A stretch of 64,000 nucleotides of DNA from Candidatus Saccharimonadota bacterium (GTDB taxonomy: Bacteria > Patescibacteriota > Saccharimonadia > CAILAD01 > BJGX01): positions 32,670 to 96,669 of the forward strand of contig JACPPH010000006.1 of the NCBI GenBank assembly GCA_016191105.1. The letters are read 5' to 3'. Numbering within the stretch: the stretch's first letter is position 1; every line of letters begins with the position of its first letter. Below the pieces are notes generated by a model. It saw only the letters and a program-made list of their open reading frames with translations. It was not told the origin of the DNA and did not search any database. The translations under genes were made by a program, and so were the position numbers. Positions 9,682 to 25,561 of the stretch are shown in pieces.

Positions 9682-10743
9682 CTAGGCTTTATACCACTTG
9701 GCAGCGCTCTCGGGCGGCACCGTATTGATTATCATCCCCGTGGCTACTTCAAAGCCGCCCCAAATAATGCTACGGCCGGTTACTTTGAGCACAAACCGGT
9801 GATGCTCACTAATGCCCTCTTCCAGATAGAAGTTAAAGCTAATTAGGTGTGGGCAGAGTCGGCCCATGAGTTTTTTGAGAATCTCAGCAGTGGTGCGCAG
9901 GTCGTCTTGGCTAAACTGAGTAAAGCTGGTAACGGGCGTTTTTGGCATAATCCAGGCCTCGAACGGCCACTGACTGGCGTAAGGGCAGAAGGCTATAAAT
10001 TTGTCGTTCTCCCAGATTATGCGCTCGGCAGCATTTTGCTCGTAAGCGATTATGTCATTGAAAGGGTCGGAGTTCTTTTGGGTAAAATACTGTTCGATGG
10101 TTTGACTTTCAATCGTGAGCTTGGGTGGCATAACCGGAATAGCAAAAATCTGGCTGTGGGCGTGGGCCAGCGAGGCGCCGGCGCTATACCCGTCGTTATG
10201 AAAAACACTCACATACTCAATGGCTTTTTGGTTCTTGAGCACCCCAATCCGCTCCTGGAACACCTGCATAACCTTGGTAATCTGATTAACGCTTAAACTC
10301 GATAGCGGCCTATTACCCAATGGTGTGTCGATTACTATCTCTTGCATGCCGTAGGCTTGGGGGTTCATGGGGGTTAGAGCCGGAAACTTATTTTCGACTA
10401 CCCGCACTTGCCAGCTCCCGTGCTCGTCGTTGAGATCGAACACCTTCTTTTCTAGGTGGAGCTTAGGACTATTAGCGGTCTCGATTAGCTTATGTTCTTC
10501 TATCCTAGTGTCGAAGGGCCGTTTGCCACGATTGGGGGCAATAATAACATAGTATTCGTGCAAGTAGTCGCGACGAATCTCGGTAGCTATGCCGGCAGTA
10601 TCGAGCTTAATGCCGCTGTGCTGCGGATTGAGTTTTTGAGGGTTGGAATTCCCGTCATTCGGCCTATCAGAATTAACAGAAACAGCGCTCCGGTGGTGCA
10701 CTTGTCGAGCATGCTTGGCCCCAACAGCTGACTTATTATTCAT
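9682..10743 (-). CDS. galT: Galactose-1-phosphate uridylyltransferase-like (GalT/HIT family)
   Basis: RGKRP, NKFPAL and GASLAHAHSQ (HxHxQ) motifs. Confidence 0.8.
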   Translation of the reverse strand: MNNKSAVGAKHARQVHHRSAVSVNSDRPNDGNSNPQKLNPQHSGIKLDTAGIATEIRRDYLHEYYVIIAPNRGKRPFDTRIEEHKLIETANSPKLHLEKKVFDLNDEHGSWQVRVVENKFPALTPMNPQAYGMQEIVIDTPLGNRPLSSLSVNQITKVMQVFQERIGVLKNQKAIEYVSVFHNDGYSAGASLAHAHSQIFAIPVMPPKLTIESQTIEQYFTQKNSDPFNDIIAYEQNAAERIIWENDKFIAFCPYASQWPFEAWIMPKTPVTSFTQFSQDDLRTTAEILKKLMGRLCPHLISFNFYLEEGISEHHRFVLKVTGRSIIWGGFEVATGMIINTVPPESAAKWYKA

Positions 10744-12030: not shown

Positions 12031-13193
12031 TTGGCTACTACTTTCTGAAAGATGTTTTCGTATTTGTTGAGCATGGCGGTGTTGGAATGGTTTTTAACCA
12101 CAATTTCGCGACTGGCTTTGCCAAACTTGTCGGCCCTGTCGGGGCTTTTTAAGATCTCGGTGATTTTTTCGGCCATCATGCCCGAGTTGTTCTCGGTAAA
12201 TAGGTAGCCGTTGGCATTATTATGGACAAGTTCGTGCAGAGCGGCAACATCGACCGACACCACTGGTAGCCCACTAGCCATAGCCTCGAGCGTAACTATG
12301 CTTTGTAGCTCGGCTGGCGAGCTAATGGCAAACAGATTGGCACTGTTATAGATAAGCGGCTTGTCGGCCTCGTCTATGTAACCTGTAAATGTAACCGAGC
12401 TCTGGATGTTCAGCTTTTGAGCTAAATTTTTGAGCCGGTCCATAGCTATGCCAGAACCACATATAACCAAGTGGGCTGTTGTGTTTTTTAACACATGCGG
12501 CATAGATTTTAGCAAAATGTCGAGTCGTTTTTCGCCGTCCACCCGGCCGACGTATAGCACAATCGGTTTGTCGCTAGGAATTTTGTACTTTTGCAGGGTT
12601 TTTACAGATTTGGTTCGGGGTTTAAAGATGTCGGTGTCAACACCATTGGTCACGGCTTCGGCTGGCGTTTTGAGACCATATTTTTTTAGAAAACTTAAAG
12701 CCGTTGGGGTTGGAGTAGTTACAAATGTGGCCTTATTGTGAAATCGCACCAGCCAATGCCAATAAAAGGTGTGGAGCCGGCCGTATAAAAACTTTATGCC
12801 TTTTAGGTTTAGCAAAAAGTTCTCAGGCATTAGGTGATTGGTGGCTACTACGGGAACATCATGACGCCGAGCATAGCGCATGCTAGTACGCCCCAGCATA
12901 AAGGGGTTGTGAATGTGCACGATATCGGCTTTAGCACTGTTAAATACCTGGCGAGTATGGGTGGCGGGCACAAAACTAGCCTTGTACTTGGGGTTAAAAA
13001 AGAAGGTTACAGCTCGCTCTCGGTGGATTAGCGACTTGCCATCGTGCTGCTCGTAGCTGCGAAACTTTCTACCAGGAGCCCACACCTGAACCTGGTGGCC
13101 TCGACCGATTAGGCCCTGAACCAATCGGCGCTCAAACAAGGCCCCGCCATCGGCATTGGGCCAATAACTTTCACTTACCAGTAAAATCTTCAT
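12027..13193 (-). CDS. Glycosyltransferase family 4
   Basis: MKILLVSESYWP, VGRVDGEKR, ELQSIVTLEAMASG; start moved to 13193 because the longer ORF overlaps tmRNA. Confidence 0.92.
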   Translation of the reverse strand: MKILLVSESYWPNADGGALFERRLVQGLIGRGHQVQVWAPGRKFRSYEQHDGKSLIHRERAVTFFFNPKYKASFVPATHTRQVFNSAKADIVHIHNPFMLGRTSMRYARRHDVPVVATNHLMPENFLLNLKGIKFLYGRLHTFYWHWLVRFHNKATFVTTPTPTALSFLKKYGLKTPAEAVTNGVDTDIFKPRTKSVKTLQKYKIPSDKPIVLYVGRVDGEKRLDILLKSMPHVLKNTTAHLVICGSGIAMDRLKNLAQKLNIQSSVTFTGYIDEADKPLIYNSANLFAISSPAELQSIVTLEAMASGLPVVSVDVAALHELVHNNANGYLFTENNSGMMAEKITEILKSPDRADKFGKASREIVVKNHSNTAMLNKYENIFQKVVAK

Positions 13194-13303
13194 GCTTTGG
13201 CTTCTATTATCCCGATTTTTGGCCGGTTTGGCCAGCCCCAATCTGTAAATACACCACAAAAAGCTTGTGTTTTCGAGGGTTTTGTAGTATAGTCTTACAT
13301 CTA

Positions 13304-13696
13304 GGGGCTGACTAGCTTCGACATTGAATCTTGAAATATACCTGCAGGCCGGGTTGGAATGCACGTTAGCCGTTCCGCCAAACCTTAAGTGGCAAAACAC
13401 TTATGAGCAAACTGGTAAACGCTTTGCGCGTTGACAGCTTTGCACCAGCTTACGCTTAACCCGTGTAAGCCGCTGATTGTTCGACATCAGATAGAACCTG
13501 ACGCGTCAACCATCTGATTGCTTTCCGGATAGCCCCTTCATATCTGGAATCAAGCCAAAGATAGGGGAAGCATGTGCTTGTTTTGTTGGTTTTCTTAGAT
13601 AGCACAGCCTTCTAAAACACATCAAAGCTAACTACGCTTGTAGACGGTATATTGAAAGCTCGATGGACGAGGGTGCGATTCCCTCCAGCTCCACCA
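13304..13696 (+). ncRNA. ssrA: tmRNA; predicted tag (A)GKTLMSKLVNALRVDSFAPAYA at 13391-13459
   Basis: 5' GGGGCTGA..TTCGAC, 3' T-arm and CAGCTCCACCA with a G-U pair at 3:70; internal tag ORF ending AYA-TAA; TAGTAT -10 upstream; smpB in the window. Confidence 0.96.
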
Positions 13697-15226
13697 ACAG
13701 GAACTTTCAGAATTTTTTGAGCCAGACGAAAGGACTGCCTCGCGGCTTCGCCGCTCGGCTAAGCCGCTTTGCGCAAGGCGCAAAGCGGCAGAATCCCACG
13801 GCTCGCCAAACGAAACGGAAACGGATTTGTCCAAAAGCATGGGGTTCGTTCCGATCTTTTGGACAAATACCTTGATTTCCCCGAAACTCTCGCTCTGCGA
13901 GAGTTTTTCGGCTTTATTCGCGTCTAAAATCCACGCTCGCAAGGGTTGGAGCCAATTCTTTCCCGTTCGTCCAAAATCCTCCAAATCGTTCGCAAGAGAA
14001 ACTTTTTGCTTCAAAAGTTCTTCTTTTTTGGCGAGATAGTTTTCTTTGGGAATGTCGCCGTCAATGTAGGCGGAAACGAGCTTGTCTAGTTTCTCTTGCG
14101 TATCAGAAAGTTTGGATTTGAGATTTTGGACGAAAGATTGCGATGAGTGGATATCTTCTCTTTGCCATTCGTCTACTTGCTTTAGCATTTTCTCTGTCCA
14201 CTCATCGCAAATAGCAACGCTTTTGAGCTGTGCCTTCAGTTGCGCGGCAAGATTGCTTTCTTGCACATATTTTTGTGAACACACGCCTTTCTTTTTAGTG
14301 CAACGATAGTAGCGATATATTCCGCCGCACTTGCCGCGCGAAAATTGCGCCGTGATCGCCGAGCCGCACTCTCCGCAAGTAAGCAGTCCGGTAAATGGAA
14401 AATCGTGGCGTTGTTTTGATTTGCGGGGTTTGGCACGGCGCAATAAGACATTCTGCACGGCTTCAAAAAGCGTTGCGGAAAGAATTGGCTCAAAGCGTCC
14501 CTCGTGATATTCGCCCTTATGCTTCACCAAACCTAAATATGCTTGATTGGTGAGCATTCGCGATATGGACGCTTTGGCAAGTGGCGTTCGGTGCCGAGTT
14601 TCCAAACCAAGTTCAGCCAAAAACTCCGCCATAGTTTCCAATGTATGCGTTCCTTTGGCGTATTCCTCAAACGCACGGACAATTACTTTGGATAATGTCG
14701 GGTGCGGTTCAATGGTGCGCGTTTTCGGATTATTCACATAACCAAAGGGCGCTTTGGTCAGCCACTCTCCGCGGCGGAGTTTTTGGCGGATACCGCGATT
14801 GATATTCTCCACGAGATTATCGCTGTAATATTTGGATTGACCGAACGCCACTTGCAACATGAACAATCCTTGCGGCGTGGGCTCAAACCAAAATGTCGGA
14901 AAGCGCAAAGAAACGATTTTTTGCGTGTCCACGAGATAAATCACTTTGCCGCCGTCCACAGAATTACGCGCCAACCTGTCGGGGTGCCATGCGAGTATTC
15001 CCACGCCGTCCATTTTTTCAATCTCGCTTATCATGGCGGCAAACATTTCTCGCCCCGGTTTCTTTGCGCTTTTCGCCTCTGTAAATTCTTGGAGAATTTC
15101 CACATTTTCTCTGCGCGCATATTCTCGTAGCTCAAAGAGTTGAGCTTCAATACTCATAATTTGGTGGTCGTCATCCTCCGTTGATTTCCGAGCGTAGAGA
15201 AAATATTTTGGTTTGAGCATATTCAT
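13628..15226 (-). CDS. Large serine recombinase (integrase)
   Basis: YARKS catalytic Ser, DRLARN, Zn ribbon CGECG..YYRC..C, coiled coil; the last 20 codons read antisense through the tmRNA 3' end. Confidence 0.95.
   Translation of the reverse strand: MNMLKPKYFLYARKSTEDDDHQIMSIEAQLFELREYARRENVEILQEFTEAKSAKKPGREMFAAMISEIEKMDGVGILAWHPDRLARNSVDGGKVIYLVDTQKIVSLRFPTFWFEPTPQGLFMLQVAFGQSKYYSDNLVENINRGIRQKLRRGEWLTKAPFGYVNNPKTRTIEPHPTLSKVIVRAFEEYAKGTHTLETMAEFLAELGLETRHRTPLAKASISRMLTNQAYLGLVKHKGEYHEGRFEPILSATLFEAVQNVLLRRAKPRKSKQRHDFPFTGLLTCGECGSAITAQFSRGKCGGIYRYYRCTKKKGVCSQKYVQESNLAAQLKAQLKSVAICDEWTEKMLKQVDEWQREDIHSSQSFVQNLKSKLSDTQEKLDKLVSAYIDGDIPKENYLAKKEELLKQKVSLANDLEDFGRTGKNWLQPLRAWILDANKAEKLSQSESFGEIKVFVQKIGTNPMLLDKSVSVSFGEPWDSAALRLAQSGLAERRSREAVLSSGSKNSESSCWWSWRESHPRPSSFQYTVYKRS
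13691..13822. repeat. Inverted repeat 1, left copy (putative att P arm)
   Basis: Reverse complement of 15255-15386, 131/132 identical by eye. Confidence 0.93.
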
Positions 15227-15254
15227 ATTTGAATTATTTTAGACGCGAATAAAG

Positions 15255-15386
15255 GTTTCCGTTTCGTTTGGCGAGCCGTGGGATTTTGCCGCTTTGCGCC
15301 TTGCGCAAAGCGGCTTAGCCGAGCGGCGAAGCCGCGAGGCAGTCCTTTCGTCTGGCTCAAAAAATTCTGAAAGTTCCTGTTGGTGG
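15255..15386. repeat. Inverted repeat 1, right copy
   Basis: Reverse complement of 13691-13822; adjacent 15236-15254 also matches 13912-13930. Confidence 0.93.
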
Positions 15387-15387
15387 G

Positions 15388-15521
15388 ATATTCTAAACTT
15401 TGCGCGAAACTATTTTGAAGGGAACTAGCCCGCCTCCGCTTCGCTCCGGCGGAACGCTCGGGCGCGGCGGAATTCCCCCCACACCCCCCTTCCGCCGCGC
15501 CCTCGCTTTGAAAGCCGCCGC
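15388..15521. repeat. Inverted repeat 2, left copy (putative att P' arm)
   Basis: Reverse complement of 18625-18758, 134 bp, no mismatch seen. Confidence 0.93.
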
Positions 15522-15681
15522 GCAGAAAATTCAGAAAAGAAAAGTGGTGTCGTGTTTGCCCCGCCCACCCATGCGCACACGACATCAATTTTGCTCCCCG
15601 AAACTACTGTAGCATAATTGGTCGCCATAGACTAATTGTATAACATCTGCTAAAATTCTTGCAAGAGCGATAATTTCCTTT

Positions 15682-15885
15682 ATGGCGAACGAAATTACAA
15701 AATTCGGTAAAAAGGTCAAAGAAATACGCTTGAAAAAGCGAATGTCGCAAGGCGACATCGCAAGAATTTTGGGCGTTCATAGGAGCTATATCAGTGGCCT
15801 AGAGCGCGGTATTCGCAACCCATCTCTTTTAACGGTTCAAAAAGTGGCTAAAGCGCTAAAAGTGAACGCAAAAGATTTAATATAA
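15682..15885 (+). CDS. XRE-family HTH regulator
   Basis: SQGDIA..GVHRSYISGLERGIRNPSL. Confidence 0.92.
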   Translation: MANEITKFGKKVKEIRLKKRMSQGDIARILGVHRSYISGLERGIRNPSLLTVQKVAKALKVNAKDLI

Positions 15886-15902
15886 AGCTTTACCCTCGGC
15901 AT

Positions 15903-16679
15903 ATGAAAACGAAACTGAAGAAACTGAAGATCGGAATATGGACGTTTATTGTTGTGGCGCTTTTAGTTGCGGCAAAATTTCTGATTCACGCCTGGGGGCT
16001 CGAATACTTCTCGCTTAACGCCCTCTTTACGAGCGCGATCGCGGGAGCGATCTTCATCATGGGTTTCCTGCTTGCTGGAATTATGGCCGATTATAAGGAG
16101 GCGGAAAAAATTCCGGTGGAGCTTCGTTCGTCTCTTGAGAATATTTGGGAGGAGGGAAAGTTCTTCAGCCGTGATAAAAGAGAGTTCAATCTCTCAAAAC
16201 TTAATGACACCTTACTCTCAATAGTCCGGAATTTCTTTAAAGGCCTCGGGCACGAGGGCGACCACTACCGGCTCGATCCGTGCGTTGCGTCAGTCAACGA
16301 GCTTTCGGAGTCGTTTGGACAAATGGAAAAGCTTGGCATGCCACCCAACTATATCGTCCGGCTCGAGGGCGAGCAGGCCTCGGTACGCCGCCAGGTGCTG
16401 CGTGTCTATCATATCCAACGCACGCAATTCCTGCCTTCGGCACACATACTTGCAGAATCCCTCGCGCTCGGAATGGTGTTCCTGCTCCTCTTTGTCAAAA
16501 CGGAAGGATCGCCGGAGTCTATCGTGCTATTCGGATTCATATCGTATCTGTTCCTCTACGTCCGGCAACTCATTCGCGTTCTTGAGAAGCCGTTCAGGCA
16601 GGGCGATAATACGCTCGACGACGTGAGCCTATTTCTCTTGAAAAAGTTTGAGAAGGAATTGTCAGGACATACGGCATGA
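15903..16679 (+). CDS. Hypothetical four-TM membrane protein
   Basis: Two hydrophobic pairs separated by a soluble helical region; LEKPF motif is reminiscent of bestrophin-like/DUF4239 proteins. Confidence 0.6.
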   Translation: MKTKLKKLKIGIWTFIVVALLVAAKFLIHAWGLEYFSLNALFTSAIAGAIFIMGFLLAGIMADYKEAEKIPVELRSSLENIWEEGKFFSRDKREFNLSKLNDTLLSIVRNFFKGLGHEGDHYRLDPCVASVNELSESFGQMEKLGMPPNYIVRLEGEQASVRRQVLRVYHIQRTQFLPSAHILAESLALGMVFLLLFVKTEGSPESIVLFGFISYLFLYVRQLIRVLEKPFRQGDNTLDDVSLFLLKKFEKELSGHTA

Positions 16680-16698
16680 TTTGCGAGTTGTGCGTTTT

Positions 16699-18579
16699 AT
16701 GAAAATTGCAAACGACCAAAAGAAAAGTAATCACCTGGAATGGATACTGACGGCGATTGCCGCCGGCACCTTCGTCGCGGGAATTTTTTTCAGTGTAATC
16801 AAATTGCCTCTGGCAGACTGGTTTTATTATATATCCTTGCTAGCTGGTGGGTTGCCAGTGGCAAGAGCGGCGACACGAACTCTCCTCCGGCGGAAAATAT
16901 CAATTAATGTACTGGTAACCATCGCAGCTATCGGAGCGCTGTATCTTGGACAAATCGCCGAGGCGGCGGCAGTGATGTTTTTCTTTGCTTTGGCGGAATC
17001 ATTTGAAAAATTTGGCAAAGCGCGTTCGCAAAAAGCTATAGCCGCACTGCTGGAGAGATCGCCGAAACTCGCCCGCCTGCAGGATGGCCGAGAAGTCGCG
17101 GTCGAAAAGGTTGGCGTCGGCGAAACCATAAAAATTCTGCCCGGCGACCTTATCCCTCTGGACGGGATAGTCAGCGGAGGCGACTCCGCAGTCGATGAAG
17201 CGGCTATTACCGGTGAAAGCGTCCCGAAGGAAAAGTATGCGGGACAAACGGTATTTGCCGGCACTATGAACGAAAACGGCTATCTGGAAGTCAGAGTTAC
17301 GAAAACCGCTTCCAATACCACACTTTCTAAAATAATTGTGCTTATCCAGCAGGCGCAAAAGTCCAAGCCTGAAATGCAGGAATTTCTGGACAGGTTTGCC
17401 AGCTTCTATATTCCAGCCGCTCTAGCTCTCGCGGCGCTTGTGGTTATTGTGCCGACCGTGTTTTTCGGACAGCCGTTTAGTCCCTGGCTTACCACGGCCC
17501 TGATTTTACTGGTTTTAGCCTGCCCGGATGCGCTGGTGGTGTCGGCTCCTGTGGCAGTGGCTGCCGCCATGGGCGGAGCTTCGCGCAGAGGAGTATTAAT
17601 AAAGGGCGGCAAATTTCTAGAGTCTTTAAGCAAGGTTAAAGCGTTTGCATTTGATAAGACCAAGACGCTTACTGAAGGGAGTTTGAAAGTGGCCGAAGTC
17701 ATAACTATGCATGGAGCAAGTGAGGAAGAAGTTTTGTCTGATGCCGCAGGACTAGAAAAATTCTCATCTCATCCATTGGCGGCTACCATTCAAAAATATG
17801 CTGCCGACAAGGGCGTCTCCGTTCATGATATGGAAGATTTCAAAAACATTCCCGGACGTGGAGGCTTGGCTAATTGCATGGTTTGTCCAACAAAAGATCA
17901 TGCCATTGGTAATTTGCAACATATCGGCGCAAGTATCAAGGTATGCAAGGATGTTTTGAAGGAAGTTGAGAGAATGGAATCGCTTGGCATGACAACGGTC
18001 ATTGTCAGCGAAGGCCCCAAAGTGATAGGGATCATAGGCATCACTGACCGCCTGCGCCAAGAATCTAAAAACGTTATCACCTCGCTTAATTCGCTTGGAG
18101 TCACACCGGTTATGCTTACGGGCGATAATGAACGGGCCGCCCGTCATATAGCGGAGCAAATAGGAATTAACGAAGTTCATGCGGCCTTGCTTCCTGATCA
18201 AAAAGCCGAACTGGTGAGAGTATTGCAGCAAAGGTATGGAAAAGTCGCCATGGTGGGAGACGGCGTAAATGATGCGCCATCTTTGGCGCGGGCTGATGTA
18301 GGCATAGCGATGGGCGGAGGCGGGTCGGATGTTGCAATCGAGACAGCTGATGTCACTTTGATGAACGATGCCCTAGGCACTATTCCTTACCTGCTTAGAT
18401 TAGGACGCCAAACCTTCAGCGCAGTGAAGCAGAATGTATATGGCTCGCTTGCAGTAAAGGGTGTGATCCTTCTGCTCGGCTTATTTGGTCTGGTGCGGCT
18501 TGATGTGGCTGTGGCAGTTGATGCGGGCGCAGCCATAGTGGTTATATTGAATGGCCTACGATTGTTTAATGCGAAGTAA
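16699..18579 (+). CDS. P1B-type heavy-metal-translocating ATPase
   Basis: TGES, CPD in the TM6 position, DKTKT phosphorylation motif, SHP, MLTGD, GDGVNDAP. Confidence 0.92.
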   Translation: MKIANDQKKSNHLEWILTAIAAGTFVAGIFFSVIKLPLADWFYYISLLAGGLPVARAATRTLLRRKISINVLVTIAAIGALYLGQIAEAAAVMFFFALAESFEKFGKARSQKAIAALLERSPKLARLQDGREVAVEKVGVGETIKILPGDLIPLDGIVSGGDSAVDEAAITGESVPKEKYAGQTVFAGTMNENGYLEVRVTKTASNTTLSKIIVLIQQAQKSKPEMQEFLDRFASFYIPAALALAALVVIVPTVFFGQPFSPWLTTALILLVLACPDALVVSAPVAVAAAMGGASRRGVLIKGGKFLESLSKVKAFAFDKTKTLTEGSLKVAEVITMHGASEEEVLSDAAGLEKFSSHPLAATIQKYAADKGVSVHDMEDFKNIPGRGGLANCMVCPTKDHAIGNLQHIGASIKVCKDVLKEVERMESLGMTTVIVSEGPKVIGIIGITDRLRQESKNVITSLNSLGVTPVMLTGDNERAARHIAEQIGINEVHAALLPDQKAELVRVLQQRYGKVAMVGDGVNDAPSLARADVGIAMGGGGSDVAIETADVTLMNDALGTIPYLLRLGRQTFSAVKQNVYGSLAVKGVILLLGLFGLVRLDVAVAVDAGAAIVVILNGLRLFNAK

Positions 18580-18624
18580 ATACCAAAATGAATTTGCGGC
18601 GTGCCAGCTTCGCTGGCCTGAATG

Positions 18625-18758
18625 GCGGCGGCTTTCAAAGCGAGGGCGCGGCGGAAGGGGGGTGTGGGGGGAATTCCGCCGCGCCCGAGCGTTCCGCCGG
18701 AGCGAAGCGGAGGCGGGCTAGTTCCCTTCAAAATAGTTTCGCGCAAAGTTTAGAATAT
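18625..18758. repeat. Inverted repeat 2, right copy
   Basis: Reverse complement of 15388-15521. Confidence 0.93.
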
Positions 18759-18812
18759 ACCCCTCCGGAGCTTCGCAGATATTGCTTGCAAAGCCCAAAA
18801 GGGGGGCGGTGG

Positions 18813-19712
18813 TCACGATTGGAGGGCCGTGGCCAGGTTGGAGGCGAGGTTGCGGATGGCCTGCTTGCCGTCGTCGGTGATGATCGGGATCGACCGCGAG
18901 TAGCTGCTCTCGGTTGCCAGACCGATGTTGAAGTTGATCTTCGGTACCTCGTACTCGACTGGCTTTTCAGGTTCGTGACGGTTCTTGTTCTCCCGGAGTC
19001 CGGTCATCATCGAGGCGTGGGTCTGCCAGGCCGGCATCTCGTCCTCGAGCTGCCATGGCTGGACGATGCCGCCGAGGCTCAACGCCACTTCGTAGTCGCC
19101 GACCTGGAATCGGGGGCGACCGAAGTGACGCAGGGGGCCTCCGCGCTCTTCCGTCATGATCTGCTCGACGATCTGCTCACTCGTGCACTCGGCTCCGATC
19201 GTCGTCAGGTTGATGCTGATGACCTCGAAGTCGAAGGTGACAAGCTCGCTGTCGGGCTCGACCTGTGCGGTGACGTCGATGTGCTGAACTGCGCGGTCGA
19301 TCTGGAGGGACTCGGCGAGCCCCACCTCGACCTGGTCACCGACGTAGGCGGCACTGAGATGCAGCAAGAACCAGGTGTCGTCCAGCTTCTGGACCTCGAC
19401 GGTGGTCTTGAAGAACCGACCAACGCCGTCGTAGTCGTAGTGGTAGCTGTACGAGCCCACCGCTTCGATGCCGGCGTCGATCTTGGTGAAGAGGTCGGTC
19501 AGGAACCGATCGTCTCCACCATACATCTCCTCGACGAGCGGCTTCAACAACGCGATCCCGACGCCACCATCCTGGATCAGCTTCTTCTCGGTGGCATTCG
19601 ACCCGGCCGTCTGGCCAGAGGCGAAGAGTCGGAGTGCGTTGCGAACGGCCTCGATCCCTTCGAGTGGGATGCCGCTCAGGTATTCCGTGGTATTGACGGT
19701 GAGGAAGCTCAT
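18813..19712 (-). CDS. Hypothetical protein, GC-rich codon usage
   Basis: AGGAAGGAG RBS, consensus promoter upstream, strong G/C third-position bias. Confidence 0.75.
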   Translation of the reverse strand: MSFLTVNTTEYLSGIPLEGIEAVRNALRLFASGQTAGSNATEKKLIQDGGVGIALLKPLVEEMYGGDDRFLTDLFTKIDAGIEAVGSYSYHYDYDGVGRFFKTTVEVQKLDDTWFLLHLSAAYVGDQVEVGLAESLQIDRAVQHIDVTAQVEPDSELVTFDFEVISINLTTIGAECTSEQIVEQIMTEERGGPLRHFGRPRFQVGDYEVALSLGGIVQPWQLEDEMPAWQTHASMMTGLRENKNRHEPEKPVEYEVPKINFNIGLATESSYSRSIPIITDDGKQAIRNLASNLATALQS

Positions 19713-19783
19713 GGCTTCACTCCTTCCTGTAGGTGTGGGGTGCGACCGCTTTCACGGCCCTAGACTTACTAGAGATGCTGACA

Positions 19784-19812
19784 ATGTTACCATAAGTAAT
19801 TTAGTTTGTCAA
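19784..19812 (-). promoter_or_regulatory. Sigma70 promoter for 18813-19712
   Basis: TTGACA-N17-TAACAT with extended TG. Confidence 0.75.
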
Positions 19813-19830
19813 TACCCTGGTGTTAATCCC

Positions 19831-20477
19831 TTATCGGAGTACTGGTGATCCGTTGAGCTTCCATCTGTTGTATTCGGGAGTTAGTATTTCTCTCCAGTAG
19901 GCAGCGTTTTCGAGTATTAGGTGTAAATTATTGCGTATTCGCTCCACCATGGGAGACTCAGAGTCATTTTCTGGGTCTTTTTTGGTACTTGCTAACCTGA
20001 TAAGTGGACTAATTTGCTGGGTGTAAACTTTTCCATCTTTTTTAACTACAAAATCCTGTGGAAATACCAATTGTTTACACCTCAAGCCTATCATCGTGTG
20101 GTTCAACTGCCAGTACTTTTTAGTCATGTTGTTGATAAAGCCGATGGAGAAGTGTACAAACTCCGATAGATCCTTTTCTACGTTCTTGACCCCATTAATC
20201 TCTTTTTTGTTTTCAACAAGGCTCTGTTTTACCTTTTCGATTGCTTGTTTAGTATAGTCAGCGAGTTCGGGACTATTTGCCAACAAGGTTATTAGCCTAC
20301 TTTCTGTTCCTGAAGCTCAATAGACCGCGTCTCGAGCCGTTTAAGATACTCAAGCTTAGTTTGTTGTCTCTGACGCCAAACTGTATCAAGGGTGGTCTCT
20401 AGATCCGTACAGCCCAAGGAGAAGGCTTCATCCAGCTTATCTAAGACCGATTTAGTCATAACACTGGGGCTAGTCAT
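19831..20477 (-). pseudogene. Serine recombinase C-terminal remnant (frameshifted, catalytic domain absent)
   Basis: Coiled coil plus KQLVFPQ..VYTQQISPLIRL..KKD pattern; spans a GCTCCACCA core; broken near 20290. Confidence 0.65.
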
Positions 20478-20587
20478 AGTACCTACGGTATACTCCTGTA
20501 TAGCGTACTACGGGCAAATTTGAAGACATCCAAAGAGACTCCTTTATCTTGTAAGTAGGGGCGGTAGGTGATAACTAACCCAACCTT

Positions 20588-21709
20588 CTAGCTTATTAGA
20601 GTTAGTAGTTTTGGAAAATAGTAGACAGTGGCACCCTTTGTGCCTCTAACAGATCTTATGGAATCGATCACCCTATCTTCTAATAATCTGTTAACCAAGG
20701 AACTGGCAGTAATTCTAGAGATTTTCAGTGTCTTTATTACATGGGAGATTTGGAATACTGGTGTTTCAAATATCATGTTAACCATTCTGTTCATATTGGG
20801 GGATTGTGAACCTTCGTACCTATCAAGCAATATCTCATTTAGCTTGGTTATCTTTTCTACAAGACTGATCGATATGCCACACTGTTCCTTTAAGGATTCC
20901 AGGAAGAATATTATCCAAGGGGTGATGTCGCCAGTTGTGTCAACATAGTGAAGCATCTGACGGTATTCCTTTGCTTTTTTCTCGAAGTATTCACTGGTGT
21001 AAAGGACGGGGGCAGAAAGTGCACCCTGGTATTGAAGAAGGGCAGGGATTAACATTCTACCAATTCTTCCATTCCCATCCTCAAATGGGTGGATAGCCTC
21101 AAACTGATAGTGGAAGATTGCAGTTTTTATCAAGGGCGTCTCATCTGTGGAGTTAAAATAGTCAACCAGATTATCCATATATCCTTCCACAGCGGTGTAG
21201 AAAGGTGGAACATAGGTAGCTTTTTGTATGGAAGTGCTCTTGTTTTTACCTATCCAAACATCTTTTGACCTAAATTTACCAAGAGCTCCGTTATGAGGGG
21301 TTCTATGTAAGAGAACATAGTGAAGTTGACGTATCTGGTATTTTGAAATGCCGCCCTTTTGATCTTTTATCTTCATAGCAAGACGCATCGCATCACGATA
21401 ATTTGCAACTACGATGGTATCTTGTTGGGGCGCTTTGCCTGTTGCGTCAAGAATGAAAACATCCTTAGAATCGGTGATTGTACCTTCTATCTTGGAGCTT
21501 AGAGAAGCCTCTCTTGTTAGTAGGGGCTTTATCAAGTGTTCTGCATTAGATATTTTACTGTGTGCAGTTTGGAGCATACCTAATGCATACGAAGCTTCCG
21601 CTAACTGCCGGTAGTACTTGCTGGGATCAAGATTTTTTAAGGGTAAGTATGATGGTTGACCGTATTTTACATTCATGATATATAACTTTCTATGAATATT
21701 ATACATCAT
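20588..21709 (-). CDS. Fic-family protein with C-terminal HTH
   Basis: SSKIEG inhibitory-type motif and HPFEDGNGRIGR Fic motif. Confidence 0.93.
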   Translation of the reverse strand: MMYNIHRKLYIMNVKYGQPSYLPLKNLDPSKYYRQLAEASYALGMLQTAHSKISNAEHLIKPLLTREASLSSKIEGTITDSKDVFILDATGKAPQQDTIVVANYRDAMRLAMKIKDQKGGISKYQIRQLHYVLLHRTPHNGALGKFRSKDVWIGKNKSTSIQKATYVPPFYTAVEGYMDNLVDYFNSTDETPLIKTAIFHYQFEAIHPFEDGNGRIGRMLIPALLQYQGALSAPVLYTSEYFEKKAKEYRQMLHYVDTTGDITPWIIFFLESLKEQCGISISLVEKITKLNEILLDRYEGSQSPNMNRMVNMIFETPVFQISHVIKTLKISRITASSLVNRLLEDRVIDSIRSVRGTKGATVYYFPKLLTLIS

Positions 21710-21774
21710 ACATTATGTTTGTATATACACTATATATCTTTTCTTGGAGAAGGTACTATGTGGGTGTCATTCCC

Positions 21775-21891
21775 TCAACGGAGTAGAGCAGATCTGTCGA
21801 GCTTATACCTCTCATAATCCGAGTACAGCAGTTCTCTCCAGTAGGTTATGTTTTCAGATAAAGCTTGCCAACTTTTTGCTATCCTCTCCAC
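21775..21891 (-). other. Orphan 38-codon recombinase C-terminal tail in the attR arm
   Basis: VERIAKSWQALSENITYWRELLYSDYERYKLDRSALLR*, 18/38 identical to the tail at 19831-19947. Confidence 0.8.
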
Positions 21892-21893
21892 CA

Positions 21894-21926
21894 AAGAAAG
21901 ATCAGATTAAACCTGGTCTCTTTTTT
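21894..21926 (+). terminator. Probable original tmRNA terminator displaced by the island
   Basis: AGATCAG/CTGGTCT stem plus T run directly after CTCCACCA. Confidence 0.65.
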
Positions 21927-21928
21927 GA

Positions 21929-21957
21929 TTGACAAATATACTTTAATCTTATAAAAT
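21929..21957 (+). promoter_or_regulatory. Sigma70 promoter
   Basis: TTGACA-N17-TAAAAT. Confidence 0.75.
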
Positions 21958-22024
21958 AGTGGCGTTCTTGAATCTGTCGTCTGGTGAACCATTCACCACA
22001 GATTCAGAAGAAAGCAGGTCTACA

Positions 22025-22261
22025 ATGGGTGCACGAAATGCAGCCGACGACCCAACCAAGAAACCCCTCCACGCCTACCTGAGCAAAAAAGCTCACGATG
22101 CTTGGCAGGAGGCGAGCGATGAAGCTGGTGTGAGCATGTCCGCTCTTCTAGAGGCCATTGGCCTTAGTTGGGCGGAAAAGCCACCGACAGAAGACGCTGA
22201 GTGGTTCGACGCCATCGCAGGCCGGGCGCGCAAAATCGATACCTTTCGTCGCCGGCGCTAG
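22025..22261 (+). CDS. Small protein, possible ribbon-helix-helix DNA-binding fold
   Basis: LHAYLS strand, then helix, then GVSMSALLE pattern. Confidence 0.55.
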   Translation: MGARNAADDPTKKPLHAYLSKKAHDAWQEASDEAGVSMSALLEAIGLSWAEKPPTEDAEWFDAIAGRARKIDTFRRRR

Positions 22262-22272
22262 AGGAGGAGCTC

Positions 22273-22599
22273 ATGGCAACCACGCTATTGTTCAAGGCCG
22301 GCCAGCAAGTAATCTGGAACCCGACACTCGATGGCAACAAACAGCTTGCAGAGCTCCAGCGCGCATACAGCGCAGGGCCGTTCAGGGTGGTTGAGGTGCG
22401 TTCTTGCGGTCAGTCACCTTGCAACTGTGGCAGCCCACCTGGCTACCCGCATAGTTCGAGCTGCCCCAAGGGACTCGGTCGGTTGCTCGGTCACCCCCAG
22501 TGGCTAATCTTGACCGATCTGCAAGGCCGACCCATCAACAGCTGCTTCCACGACATGGGTCCGGTGCAACTTTCGGGCCGCTGGTTCGCAGCAACCTGA
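22273..22599 (+). CDS. Hypothetical Cys/His-rich protein
   Basis: GAGGAGG RBS; CNCG..HSSSCP motif. Confidence 0.6.
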   Translation: MATTLLFKAGQQVIWNPTLDGNKQLAELQRAYSAGPFRVVEVRSCGQSPCNCGSPPGYPHSSSCPKGLGRLLGHPQWLILTDLQGRPINSCFHDMGPVQLSGRWFAAT

Positions 22600-22629
22600 G
22601 CCAAACACAACTACAAGGAGGGAATACCC

Positions 22630-22674
22630 ACGGAAAAGACCACGCGGTCCACCAGTCCGTGGGTCTTTTCGTTT
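22630..22674 (+). terminator. Intrinsic terminator
   Basis: GAAAAGACC/GGTCTTTTC stem. Confidence 0.7.
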
Positions 22675-22870
22675 ATAGAACAAGCCGTTGTGGTACTGAC
22701 CTCTCTATATCTGCACAGCCTTGCTTTTAAAAGAATAGACCGACTAAGGCCTTGCTATAAGCTAGTAGTCATTTTTTTTGTACAGATTGACTTTTTAACT
22801 ACAAAGGACAACAATAATAGCAACTTGTCCGAAAGGCGGACTTGTAGCTCCAGGAAGGTGGTTAGCGACC

Positions 22871-23251
22871 ATGTCCAAGATAGCAACCGAAAGTCGGGTG
22901 CAGAAGGCAAAGCCTTCGCGCCACGGCGTGCCAACCAGGGAGAGCATGATCGGCGACATCGTCGACGAACTGGGATGCAGCCTCGACGACGCGAACCTCA
23001 CCGTCACGATCATCGACCGGATCGGCGCGAAGCTGCGAGCCGGCCAGAGCCGGGTGCAGATCGACACCTGGGCCGAGTTCAACGCTGTGCATCCTTTGCT
23101 CAACCAGATCATGCCGCCCGGGCAACGAGCGCCCCAGGCCGGCACTCTGCACGCCAAGGCCAACGCCTACGCCAGCCGTGACAAGCAAGTCGCACTGGTG
23201 CACGTCGGCAGCAAGAACTGCATCATCATCGCCGACGACGTCGTCGTCTGA
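22871..23251 (+). CDS. Hypothetical protein, GC-rich
   Basis: AAGGTGG upstream, C/G third-position bias, followed by a hairpin. Confidence 0.6.
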   Translation: MSKIATESRVQKAKPSRHGVPTRESMIGDIVDELGCSLDDANLTVTIIDRIGAKLRAGQSRVQIDTWAEFNAVHPLLNQIMPPGQRAPQAGTLHAKANAYASRDKQVALVHVGSKNCIIIADDVVV

Positions 23252-23311
23252 TCGGCAACATCTCGATCATCTAGCGCTTCGCCGCGCGAATGGGGCATCC
23301 CTCTACGCCCC

Positions 23312-23346
23312 CGACAGAGCCCTCGCTCCCGCCGGGGGCTTTGTCG
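23312..23346 (+). terminator. Intrinsic terminator-like hairpin
   Basis: CGACAGAGCCCTCG/CGGGGGCTTTGTCG. Confidence 0.6.
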
Positions 23347-23426
23347 TTACATTTGTTATAATAATGGCTGAGATCTATAGGGCGGCCAACAGGCCGCTTA
23401 TCCGTTCCAAGACAAGGGAGAGGGAC

Positions 23427-23996
23427 ATGACCCGACCATATCGAATCCAGGTCGTATCTGTAGGTGTGGGCAAATCGCAGGTGATTGGCGCCAAGCCAAG
23501 CGGAGAGGAATGGTCTTCGGCCATTCACAAGGAGCCTGTCAGCTCTCGTAGCCTATGGGTTGATCGCAACGGCCTCGAAGGGGATACCCAGGTAGACAGG
23601 AGGGTGCACGGTGGTGACGACAAGGCAGTGTATGCATATCCTAGCGAGCACCTAAAGGCGTGGGCTGAGGAAGTCGGTCGTGAGATCACCGCGGCTGAGC
23701 TAGGAGTGAACCTGCTAGTAGAGGGTGTGACAGAAGAGACTGCGAGGATCGACGACAAGTGGTGGTGGAACGGTGTAAGGCTGATCATCACCAAGCCCCG
23801 TCAGCCCTGCAACACTCTGAGACATCACACCGGGATTCAAGACATCCGGCTGAGGATGAAAAACAACGGTTTCTGTGGCTGGTATCTGAGGGTGCTGCAG
23901 CCGGGCAGGGGTCTCACCAGCGGTGACATCTCAGTTACCCCTGGTTATGGGCCGACAGTTGCCGAGGTCTTTGCTGGAAAGACCTTCGAAACCTAA
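23427..23996 (+). CDS. MOSC-domain protein (YiiM-like)
   Basis: SAIHK, GLEGD.Q.D.RVHGG.DKAVY, PRQPC, GWYLRVLQPG. Confidence 0.9.
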   Translation: MTRPYRIQVVSVGVGKSQVIGAKPSGEEWSSAIHKEPVSSRSLWVDRNGLEGDTQVDRRVHGGDDKAVYAYPSEHLKAWAEEVGREITAAELGVNLLVEGVTEETARIDDKWWWNGVRLIITKPRQPCNTLRHHTGIQDIRLRMKNNGFCGWYLRVLQPGRGLTSGDISVTPGYGPTVAEVFAGKTFET

Positions 23997-24043
23997 GGAC
24001 ACCACGCAGGCGCGTAGAGGTCTTCACAAGCCGTCAGAAGGGT

Positions 24044-24075
24044 GACAACAGTCGCTTTTCGGGCGGCTGTTGTTA
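24044..24075 (+). terminator. Intrinsic terminator
   Basis: GACAACAGTCGC/GCGGCTGTTGTT stem. Confidence 0.7.
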
Positions 24076-24178
24076 TTTATAGAGGCTTTGCATATAATAT
24101 ACGAGACAACGGGCGGGCAAATCAGCCCGCTTTTTGCGAATTGACCCCACAAGTGAATCGAAAGAAGGAGGGCCTGTC

Positions 24179-24637
24179 ATGGCCAAACCAAAAGTAGCAG
24201 TCCTGATGGGCTCGCCCAACGACATGGACAAGATGAAGCCGGCGGCCGACACACTGGAGCGCTTCGGACTTGAGGCCGATGTGCGGGTGCTGTCCGCTCA
24301 CCGTAACCCCGATCAGGTGGTGGAGCTGGTGAGCACCGCACGTGAGAACGGCTACGCGGCACTCATCTGCGGTGCTGGCATGGCGGCTCATCTGGCCGGC
24401 GTATGCGCCGCCCACACCACCTTGCCGGTGGTGGGGGTCCCCTTGAGCGGTGGTGCTCTGAACGGCGTCGATGCGCTCTACAGCACTGTACAGATGCCCA
24501 AGGGGATCCCGGTGGCCACCGTGGCCATCGATGGTGCCATGAACGCCGCCCTACTGGTGGCGGAAATGCTGGCCATCACCGACGAGACCCTGCAGGACAC
24601 TCTCTACTTGTATCGCCAAGAGCTCGCCAACAAGTAG
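24179..24637 (+). CDS. purE: N5-CAIR mutase / AIR carboxylase
   Basis: MGSPND, SAHR, AGMAAHL, ALYSTVQMPKGIPVATV; AAGGAGG RBS. Confidence 0.96.
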   Translation: MAKPKVAVLMGSPNDMDKMKPAADTLERFGLEADVRVLSAHRNPDQVVELVSTARENGYAALICGAGMAAHLAGVCAAHTTLPVVGVPLSGGALNGVDALYSTVQMPKGIPVATVAIDGAMNAALLVAEMLAITDETLQDTLYLYRQELANK

Positions 24638-24667
24638 TCCGACCCCAACCCAACGGAAGGAAATTCC

Positions 24668-25561
24668 ATGAACACTATCGATTTGCCGCTGCTGTCCTCG
24701 AACAAGGTGCGGGATGTCTACGACGCCGGCGACGGGAGGCTTCTGCTGGTCACCAGCGATCGCCTCAGTGCCTTCGACGTTGTGATGAATCAGCAGGTGA
24801 AGTACAAGGGCATAGTGCTCAACCTGATGTCGGAGTGGTGGTTCAACTTCTTCGGTGATACGCCCAACCACATGATCACCACCGATCTGGCCAAGATGCC
24901 ACCAGGAGTGCCACGCGTTCCTGAGCTCAAGGGTCGAGTGATGCTTTGCCGCAAGGCCGAGATGCTGCCCATCGAATGCATCGTGCGTGGCTACATCACT
25001 GGTTCGGGCTGGAAGGACTACAAGCGCGACGGTGCAGTCTGTGGTCACCAACTGCCCGAGGGGCTGCTGGAGTCGCAGAAGCTGCCCGAGACGCTGTTCA
25101 CGCCCTCTACCAAGTTCGAAGCCAAGGATCGCAACATCGAACTCGACGAGGCAATGTCGCTCACAGAGGAGCGATTCTCGGGGAGAGGGGAGAGCTTGGT
25201 GTTGTCGGCACGCACCATGACCACCAACCTCTACGAGGAGGGTGCGGAGTGGGCGGCCGAACGCGGCATCATCATCGCCGACACCAAGTTCGAGGTCGGG
25301 GTGGTAGACGGTGAGCTGACCGTCTGCGACGAGATCCTGACTCCTGATAGCAGCCGGTTCTGGCCGGCTGATCAATGGGTGCCAGGCACAACGCCACCTA
25401 GCTTCGACAAGCAGCCTGTGCGTGACCACCTGGATGCCTCAGACTGGGACAAGGAACCTCCACCACCCGATCTTCCAGATGAGGTGGTGGAGGCAACCAG
25501 CGGCCGATACGTCGAGGCATACAAGCGGATCACCGGCAGCACGCTCCCACTGGCCGCCTGA
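24668..25561 (+). CDS. purC: SAICAR synthetase
   Basis: KVRDVY, SDRLSAFDV, ECIVRGYITGSG, ADTKFE, DEILTPDSSRFW, DKQPVR. Confidence 0.96.
   Translation: MNTIDLPLLSSNKVRDVYDAGDGRLLLVTSDRLSAFDVVMNQQVKYKGIVLNLMSEWWFNFFGDTPNHMITTDLAKMPPGVPRVPELKGRVMLCRKAEMLPIECIVRGYITGSGWKDYKRDGAVCGHQLPEGLLESQKLPETLFTPSTKFEAKDRNIELDEAMSLTEERFSGRGESLVLSARTMTTNLYEEGAEWAAERGIIIADTKFEVGVVDGELTVCDEILTPDSSRFWPADQWVPGTTPPSFDKQPVRDHLDASDWDKEPPPPDLPDEVVEATSGRYVEAYKRITGSTLPLAA

Follow-up and report, generated by a model that had tools for sequence, protein, structure and literature searches.

Mirrored attachment-site copies in a family of serine-integrase elements from Patescibacteria

Attachment (att) sites located inside the integrase gene have precedents in the serine integrases of streptococcal rumA integrative and conjugative elements (ICEs) and in phage Mx8; according to the available passages of the source, integration changes the C-terminus of these integrases, and the changed Mx8 enzyme is less active (PMC4701971). 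For the Listeria LI integrase, the position of the zinc-domain motif is described as differing by 5 bp between attP, the site of the mobile element, and attB, the site of the host (PMC3783163). Intramolecular attP x attP recombination is also reported for LI/A118 and for CcrA/B. Here, a 5.07-kb element inserted at the 3' end of the transfer-messenger RNA gene (tmRNA, ssrA) was analysed in a 64,000-nucleotide stretch of DNA from a Candidatus Saccharimonadota bacterium (GenBank assembly GCA_016191105.1, contig JACPPH010000006.1, positions 32,670 to 96,669), called the window below and used for all coordinates given without a locus name. Besides its two ends, the element carries an inverted copy of their joint close to the start of its large serine recombinase gene.

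Read on the plus strand, the element consisted of the tmRNA end, a reversed P arm, the recombinase gene on the minus strand, a P arm joined to a P' arm, three cargo genes and a reversed P' arm. The first inverted repeat (IR1, 132 nt, 99% identity) linked the terminal P arm of attP, now attL (IR1a, 13691-13822, minus strand, core GG at 13691-13692 on that strand), to the internal P-arm copy (IR1b, 15255-15386, plus strand, core GG at 15385-15386). The second one (IR2, 137 nt, 99% identity) linked the internal P'-arm copy with its GC-rich hairpins (IR2a, 15385-15521, plus strand) to the terminal P' arm at attR (IR2b, 18625-18761, minus strand), and contained an exact 134-nt part (15388-15521/18625-18758). 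Between positions 10000 and 24000, the next-longest inverted repeat did not exceed 30 nt at 73-79% identity, which places IR1 and IR2 far beyond chance. A first-pass annotation, made from the letters of the window, had reported both pairs (the first with one mismatch) and had proposed that the two element ends are reproduced internally, joined and inverted, upstream of the recombinase start; its coordinates held, and the copy of the attP joint was confirmed. Judged from sequence, the internal junction is an inverted attP copy of the element.

The insertion target, the tmRNA gene (13304-13696, plus strand), had its last bases ACCA (13693-13696) inside the left arm of the element. The tmRNA 3' ends of relatives from the same family or order read CCAGCTCCACCA in 8/8 cases examined, and an Rfam scan of 13000-19200 returned no match besides the tmRNA. 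The recombinase gene (13628-15226, minus strand, 532 aa) ran through IR1a, which encodes residues ~468-510, and the last 22 residues of this integrated form were tmRNA antisense, the gene at present ending in ESSCWWSWRESHPRP, followed by further residues up to KRS and a stop codon. The plus-strand reading of the internal copy ended in ESSCWWDILNFARNYFEGN and a stop codon. The sole mismatch of IR1 turned the PWDF of the family into PWDS in the coding copy, and the far junction of the window was non-canonical, being about 3 nt short, or changed by one substitution, beside the GG core (18759-18761).

The mirrored junction was confirmed as real and family-wide, not an artefact: nearly all related elements searched for the internal copy carried it, co-varying with their ends. 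The survey covered 159 loci, 80 of them the top-ranking ones among 558 genome loci and 79 drawn from the 80 top-ranking of 584 metagenome stretches. Among the 104 loci with enough flank, the inverted copy of the 3' end of the gene lay beside the start codon in 97, was displaced further upstream in 3 and was missing in 4, two of which held an internal junction of a sister type. IR2 abutted IR1 in 20/26 loci with more than 9 kb upstream, one of the misses being the flipped locus L026 described below. The IR1 copies inside one locus showed a median identity of 97%, compared to 31% (ungapped) between the arms of different loci. The layout recurred in more distant homologs (40-49% identity) and in the single-contig genomes G381 and G285, and was absent in the G099 and G391 C3 copies. 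Repeat-induced misassembly could have been suspected, as the contigs of many relatives break at these repeats, one contig (L111) is palindromic and the far junction of the window was not reproduced in run X1. Its probability is negligible given that the same layout was obtained in 100/104 loci from many assemblies as well as in single-contig genomes, that the copies differ by locus-specific mismatches, and that contigs of run X2 span from the gene start into the internal P copy and across the P-P' joint.

Several loci showed variants of this layout. The palindromic contig (L111:1-4620) had a terminal inverted repeat of 1505 nt, in the order gene start, junction, cargo, junction, gene start, and is either an assembly walk-back or a head-to-head intermediate. 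In L114 and L164, the internal junction belonged to a sister element type and mismatched the end of the gene itself, making these elements chimeric. Neighbouring or tandem modules were found in L103, L125 and L001; in L103, the gene end of one element was joined to the P' arm of the next module and regained a tail, which suggests that attL was reused as a target. A second recurrent arm type past the gene end, VSIVPNSHLFxKQ (L125:1766-1840; P0027, P0032, P0046, P0087, P0088, P0115), may mark where a sister type of cassette ends. The genome of the window harbored two more elements of the family, in tRNA-Leu (G000:C3:24117-27484) and tRNA-Val (G000:C3:36669-38594), both with the repeat around the recombinase; the internal junction of the tRNA-Leu copy was damaged.

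Elements of the family were inserted at the 3' ends of genes for tRNA-Ala, Glu, Ser, Pro, Arg, Gly, Leu, Val, Tyr, Met and Lys and for tmRNA. After removal of rows with more than 3 differences in the 12 flanking bases, the dinucleotide at tRNA positions 71-72 (GG, GA, GC or CG) agreed between gene-end and internal copies in 76/77 loci. As a label on a maximum-likelihood tree of 66 integrases, it needed 8 changes, with 65/66 rows concordant. The 2-nt core was shared by attL, attR and attP, the attR of the window being damaged beside it. No near-identical host with an empty site was found among the 40 family or order relatives that yielded tmRNA ends, so that attB is deduced here.

The motif CGAA was located at +14 in the tRNA arm, in the T-loop (a position set by construction, as it served as the anchor), and at +19/+20 in 71/78 P' arms. 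Its arginine codon was CGA in 94/100 arms and in 17% of cases in genes, a bias indicating that the motif is constrained as DNA. By analogy with LI, CGAA would be the zinc-domain motif, its shift being seen for the P' arm, and the recombinase may read the tRNA T-loop, which would explain the many different targets. Two loci had unusual junctions. A GA-core element located in a tRNA-Pro gene of CG core (L049:1594-7358) showed GA at the gene end and CG at the far end; in this one case, both junctions would be inherited from the same strand. In L047 (182-2001), two different tRNA-Ala genes in opposite orientation enclosed the recombinase, which looks as though each of the two attP copies had recombined; this contig may be chimeric.

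The first-pass annotation had further proposed that the recombinase has a switchable C-terminus, and the tail on which this proposal rests was found to be real. The frame continuing the gene contained no stop in 100 distinct P' arms (one of the 100 tail rows being a false anchor) and spelled xILxFARTxFE; in the window, the conserved tail DILNFARNYFEGN and its stop codon occupied 15387-15428 on the plus strand, in frame with the P arm. The synonymous share reached 0.52 in the tail frame and 0.06-0.13 in four other frames, a partly circular comparison as explained below, and two hydrophobic codons outside the anchor showed the same synonymous behaviour. Natural tail-bearing proteins were recovered in 7/120 database homolog clusters and in 5/159 loci. 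In the predicted model of the L026 protein, the tail formed a helix (512-526) with a predicted local distance difference test score (pLDDT) of ~79, behind a linker at 52-56. The crossover fell inside the integrase reading frame and the C-terminus was replaced upon integration. The 13-residue tail thus looks protein-coding, lost on integration and replaced by an unrelated antisense peptide. Apparent tails at the gene end in L024, L124 and L045 were rejected as false motif matches on inspection.

A working switch was also part of the first-pass annotation, and was not supported. The integrase would thereby turn its own gene off or on by inversion, the on state combining the tail with read-through from the tmRNA, and would invert the cargo in the same way. 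Beyond the gene end, the 159 loci comprised 109 with called tRNA or tmRNA antisense, 6 with tRNA-like antisense, 5 with the tail, 9 with other sequence and 30 at a contig edge; tRNA/tmRNA-type antisense was therefore found in 115 of the 129 relatives with sequence beyond the gene. L026 alone displayed a tRNA, then the recombinase in sense, then the tail (1 vs 115). As exact matches between its repeats do not exceed 48 bases, this flipped state is probably real and a simple assembler swap unlikely; the predicted inverted state with a tail-ended recombinase in sense therefore exists, behind a tRNA, but in just one locus. In L179, the tail was followed by an XRE gene on a contig cut upstream, which fits a gene-only inversion, as the switch predicts, or a circle. 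The other tail-bearing loci do not show the switch, L103 being a tandem array and L112 and L113 having no upstream copy.

Flipping of the cargo between the IR2 copies found no better footing as a switch. Of 36 loci, 32 (the window among them) had the XRE gene beside the internal junction, and the other 4 had it at the far end. In the two reversed-cargo loci that were checked, the contig starts inside the repeat and assembly could have set the orientation. A candidate extended -10 promoter of the cargo (15628-15656, plus strand, consensus match only) lies within the segment bounded by the IR2 pair and flips along, so cargo flipping should change little. Neither module had both orientations in common use (gene 1 vs 115, cargo 4/36), as phase variation would show. 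A transient on state leading straight to excision would be rare in assemblies and is conceivable, which speaks for a programmed switch together with L026, L179 and the four reversed cargoes; the 115 loci in window orientation speak against it, as do the facts that homologous recombination within 130-nt repeats yields the same product and that attL x attP is, in the part of the source at hand, not the usual pairing of large serine recombinases (PMC3783163). Taken together, such a switch is improbable; inversion occurs but is rare and does not amount to phase variation. No inversion or circle joint was found in the contigs of 7 runs, public contigs being unable to show these reliably.

An autoregulatory site, given by the first-pass annotation as an alternative, fits the data better than the switch. 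We tentatively read the mirrored att copy, with slightly less than even confidence, as a second attP that provides the integrase gene with a promoter and with a leader that silences it, and that seldom takes part in flipping, the tail being swapped by insertion. A -10/-35-like pair matching the consensus at 9/12 positions was predicted in the internal P' arm (TTCAAA-18-TAGAAT, sigma-70-like, 15390-15419, minus strand), pointing across the core to the recombinase start codon. The promoter consensus search found 7 sites where 2.4 were expected. The codon matching the -10 had A in third position in ~71/100 arms compared to 15% in genes, and a TAnnnT hexamer occupied the -10 place in ~49/100 arms of the family.

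The predicted leader, the minus strand of IR1b, would be the complement of the last 132 bases of the recombinase gene itself. A second helix was predicted from a third inverted repeat (13912-13930/15236-15254, 19 nt, perfect) placed directly before the recombinase start codon: the 19-nt leader segment 15236-15254 (minus strand, -28 to -10 of the ATG), which ends 10 bases before the ATG, would pair with coding sequence about 100 bases further in, namely the segment encoding ILDANK (13912-13930, minus strand). Leader pairing of at least 9 nt was found in 73/83 distinct loci and in 20/357 control windows, while IR1 itself reached the start in 15 more loci. The own pairing partner beat the median foreign partner in 71/83 loci, which indicates co-variation of the leader with its own gene. 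In folding predictions, positions -30 to -10 were closed in the complete mRNA and mostly unpaired as long as its 3' end had not been made.

These elements of sequence can be assembled into a tentative mechanism. By their sequence, the ends and the internal copy share one core dinucleotide at tRNA positions 71-72. The excised circle would hold two inverted attP copies and make the full-length, tail-bearing enzyme, which would integrate it; the CGAAC of the P' arm may mimic the tRNA T-loop, 5-6 bp further from the core, the offset that an attP should have relative to attB. After insertion, the gene as sequenced ends in a variable antisense peptide, and the resulting enzyme may be less active or differently directed, which would stabilise the insertion. 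The predicted promoter of the internal P' arm would fire into the internal P arm and yield a leader complementary to the 3' end of its own message. With the second short helix lying over the ribosome-loading region, the finished mRNA would close, and integrase bound at the internal site would be expected to repress. Occasional recombination or gene conversion between the repeats could keep the copies alike and yield rare inverted isomers, among which the isomer with a full-length gene behind a tRNA is likely short-lived.

The internal copy could also be a pure decoy or spare attP that plays no part in expression and either titrates the integrase or offers integration another chance. It does keep a complete att geometry with a matching core, and the recombinase between two tRNA-Ala genes in L047 is what use of a second site would give. 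Such a passive site would leave unexplained the co-varying leader helix, the codon and -10-like constraints outside the dyad, and the length of the repeats, and L047 may be a chimeric contig; this explanation is very improbable.

A number of points weigh against a mirrored attP acting as promoter and leader. The promoter is a 9/12 consensus match that fits about half of the arms, and promoter, leader, enzyme activity and circle were all derived from sequence. In L011, L145 and L173, 0.6-2 kb separate the internal copy from the start codon, including whole genes in two of them, and distant homologs have 110-200 nt in this interval; with such wide gaps, leader pairing cannot be universal. For the tail, one reverse frame scored a synonymous share of 0.45, albeit with stops in 46/100 arms, and the synonymous test was partly circular in that a degenerate DNA motif spanning codons 6-11 had served to anchor the arms. 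Related loci are, in addition, not independent of each other. Finally, two properties fit this reading poorly: the near-perfect identity of IR2, which extends over 61-426 nt (median 215) although about 50 bp suffice for an att site, and the abundance of DNA mini-hairpins in the arms.

The last two properties direct attention to single-stranded DNA. P arms contained 9.2 triloop hairpins per kb compared to 1.5 in shuffles, a six-fold enrichment, and 76/121 of these triloops were of the C(GNA)G type or its complement, compared to 1/158 in the gene body. According to the available part of the source, such DNA mini-hairpins are found at single-strand origins and at the N4 promoter (PMC13037366). 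A fold-back attP can be envisaged in which a single strand, from the lagging strand or from competence DNA, folds into two abutting stems (IR1a/IR1b and IR2a/IR2b) whose loops hold the integrase and the cargo. Duplex attP would be rebuilt at the core, the recombinase would excise or integrate the folded form, and stem repair would keep the copies identical. This possibility, doubtful as it is, accommodates both ends being copied, inverted and joined exactly at the crossover base, near-perfect repeats of 2-8 times att-site length, the triloop enrichment and the co-varying second stem. It also accommodates the fixed orientation (115 vs 1; 32 vs 4), which could not persist under free flipping, the dinucleotides of L049, inherited from the same strand at its two junctions (one case), and the lack of a replication or transfer gene in an element whose identical cargo turned up in the runs of four studies.

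A folded single-stranded substrate sits uneasily with the chemistry of serine recombinases, which cleave the two strands in concert, and a full exchange on a folded circle would give hairpin-capped chromosome ends that would then require replication and a further recombination event. Pairing at the RNA level accounts for the second stem equally well, and strand-specific G-T bias was not found in the repeat mismatches (IR1 90 vs 69; IR2 19 vs 23). No single-stranded or circular molecule was seen, and viral contigs contained 0 relatives. We know of no folded single-strand substrate for a serine integrase. It seems rather unlikely that a widespread cassette class of the Candidate Phyla Radiation (CPR) moves as single-stranded DNA, with a dumbbell rebuilding duplex attP and a large serine integrase, tail-armed in the joined form, excising it and inserting it at any tRNA with a suitable T-loop and acceptor end. 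If so, no earlier serine recombinase would have worked on folded single strands; the recombination mode would be new, and the transfer route would need neither conjugation nor phage genes.

The recombinase matched the Pfam families Resolvase, Recombinase and Zn_ribbon_recom, all above cut-off, and its closest solved relatives were the SPbeta integrase (E 3e-15) and the A118 integrase (E 3e-9). The YARKS motif and four Cys were invariant in 75 recombinase sequences, and the predicted L026 model displayed long helices over 340-419. Named relatives of the recombinase were mostly Patescibacteria records. Among phages, the integrases in the best matches listed were just 23-27% identical, and PLSDB plasmids gave just short matches (up to 6% of the query), nearly all in the ATPase among the matches listed. 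The cargo, all on the plus strand, comprised an XRE/HTH_3 regulator (15682-15885), which is a common first cargo gene of the family, a hydrophobic protein of 258 aa without assignment to any Pfam or NCBIfam family (15903-16679), and a heavy-metal P1B-type ATPase of the cadmium/zinc subfamily (16699-18579; TIGR01525 and TIGR01512 above cut-off). Pfam and NCBIfam, whose profiles cover such factors poorly, revealed no candidate directionality factor among these three genes. The host genome measured 0.93 Mb.

The element of the window seems to have been mobile recently. Its cargo was recovered on one contig, without a single differing letter, in four runs from four studies; three of these runs lack coverage of the flanks of the window, and a junction contig of run X2 leads into tRNA-Ala-like sequence. 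Both flanks are present in run X1, from which the window itself may derive, so that this run is not independent. In that run, the P' contig continues as CCCACCAA and the flank contig has 74 non-fitting letters, so that a short stretch may be missing from the right junction as assembled. A DNA search of 400 genomes of the phylum gave no second copy of the cargo of the window, the best match reaching 67%. To the right of the element (18762-25561), genes of high GC (55-59%) and low GC (40%) form a patchwork that includes a Fic protein and purine-synthesis-like genes and is likely older foreign DNA at the tmRNA; no second tmRNA end was found there. A tRNA-SeC called by ARAGORN in antisense of the Fic gene (20690-20783) is probably false.

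With ~730 matching stretches estimated in the genome collection and ~2400 in the metagenome collection, these elements point to a large, active mobile-element family in Patescibacteria, whose gene flow is poorly understood. The 13-residue tail, gained or lost at the crossover of the integrase itself, together with the mirrored site as control region, suggests a testable means of controlling a serine integrase for which no directionality factor is recognised. The apparent reading of the T-loop and the at least 8 changes of core dinucleotide are of interest for integrase engineering. In the open literature, which misses most subscription papers, no description of a mirrored attP bracketing both modules was found, nor any paper on serine recombinases in CPR/Patescibacteria or with att-in-serine-integrase wording. 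The parts have precedents, and the mirrored attP around both modules appears to be new among serine-integrase islands.

The recombinase shares its Resolvase, recombinase and zinc-ribbon domains with the SPbeta SprA/YokA, Listeria LI/A118 and CcrA/B integrases, but scored below the cut-offs of the curated CcrA/B/C and XisF families (92 bits against 900 for CcrB of SCCmec, 87 against 375 for XisF). As in the large serine integrases of phages and ICEs, a 2-nt core is kept across the junctions and a motif is shifted by 5-6 bp between site types. Unlike those systems, with one attP per mobile form, two inverted attP copies were present per element, the targets were the last bases of many tRNAs and of tmRNA, and no directionality-factor gene was recognised. 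As in the rumA ICEs and Mx8, integration alters the C-terminus of the integrase; the accessible rumA/Mx8 passages mention neither a mirrored second site nor repeats around integrase and cargo, and Mx8 encodes a tyrosine integrase, whereas just a 13-residue helix is swapped here. The Mx8 work is reportedly that of Magrini in 1999, known through a citing paper.

Systems with inverted repeats or folded substrates offer further comparisons. Like the inverted repeats of Hin/Gin and the shufflons, those of the family flank a gene, and a flipped state exists (L026); unlike them, the repeats are att arms of 130-400 nt rather than short crossover sites, and the orientation is 115 to 1. The yeast 2-micron plasmid is free, uses a tyrosine recombinase and occurs as two isomers in similar amounts. 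The circle proposed here would likewise have two unique segments between long inverted repeats holding the recombinase site, whereas the element is integrated, with one dominant isomer and no replication gene. IS10 fold-back inhibition and folded single-stranded attP are well-known concepts. The attP of CTX phage, integron attC and the ends of IS200/IS605 are folded single-strand substrates with short stems, acted upon by tyrosine or HUH enzymes; one strand of the element could, like them, fold to rebuild a duplex att site.

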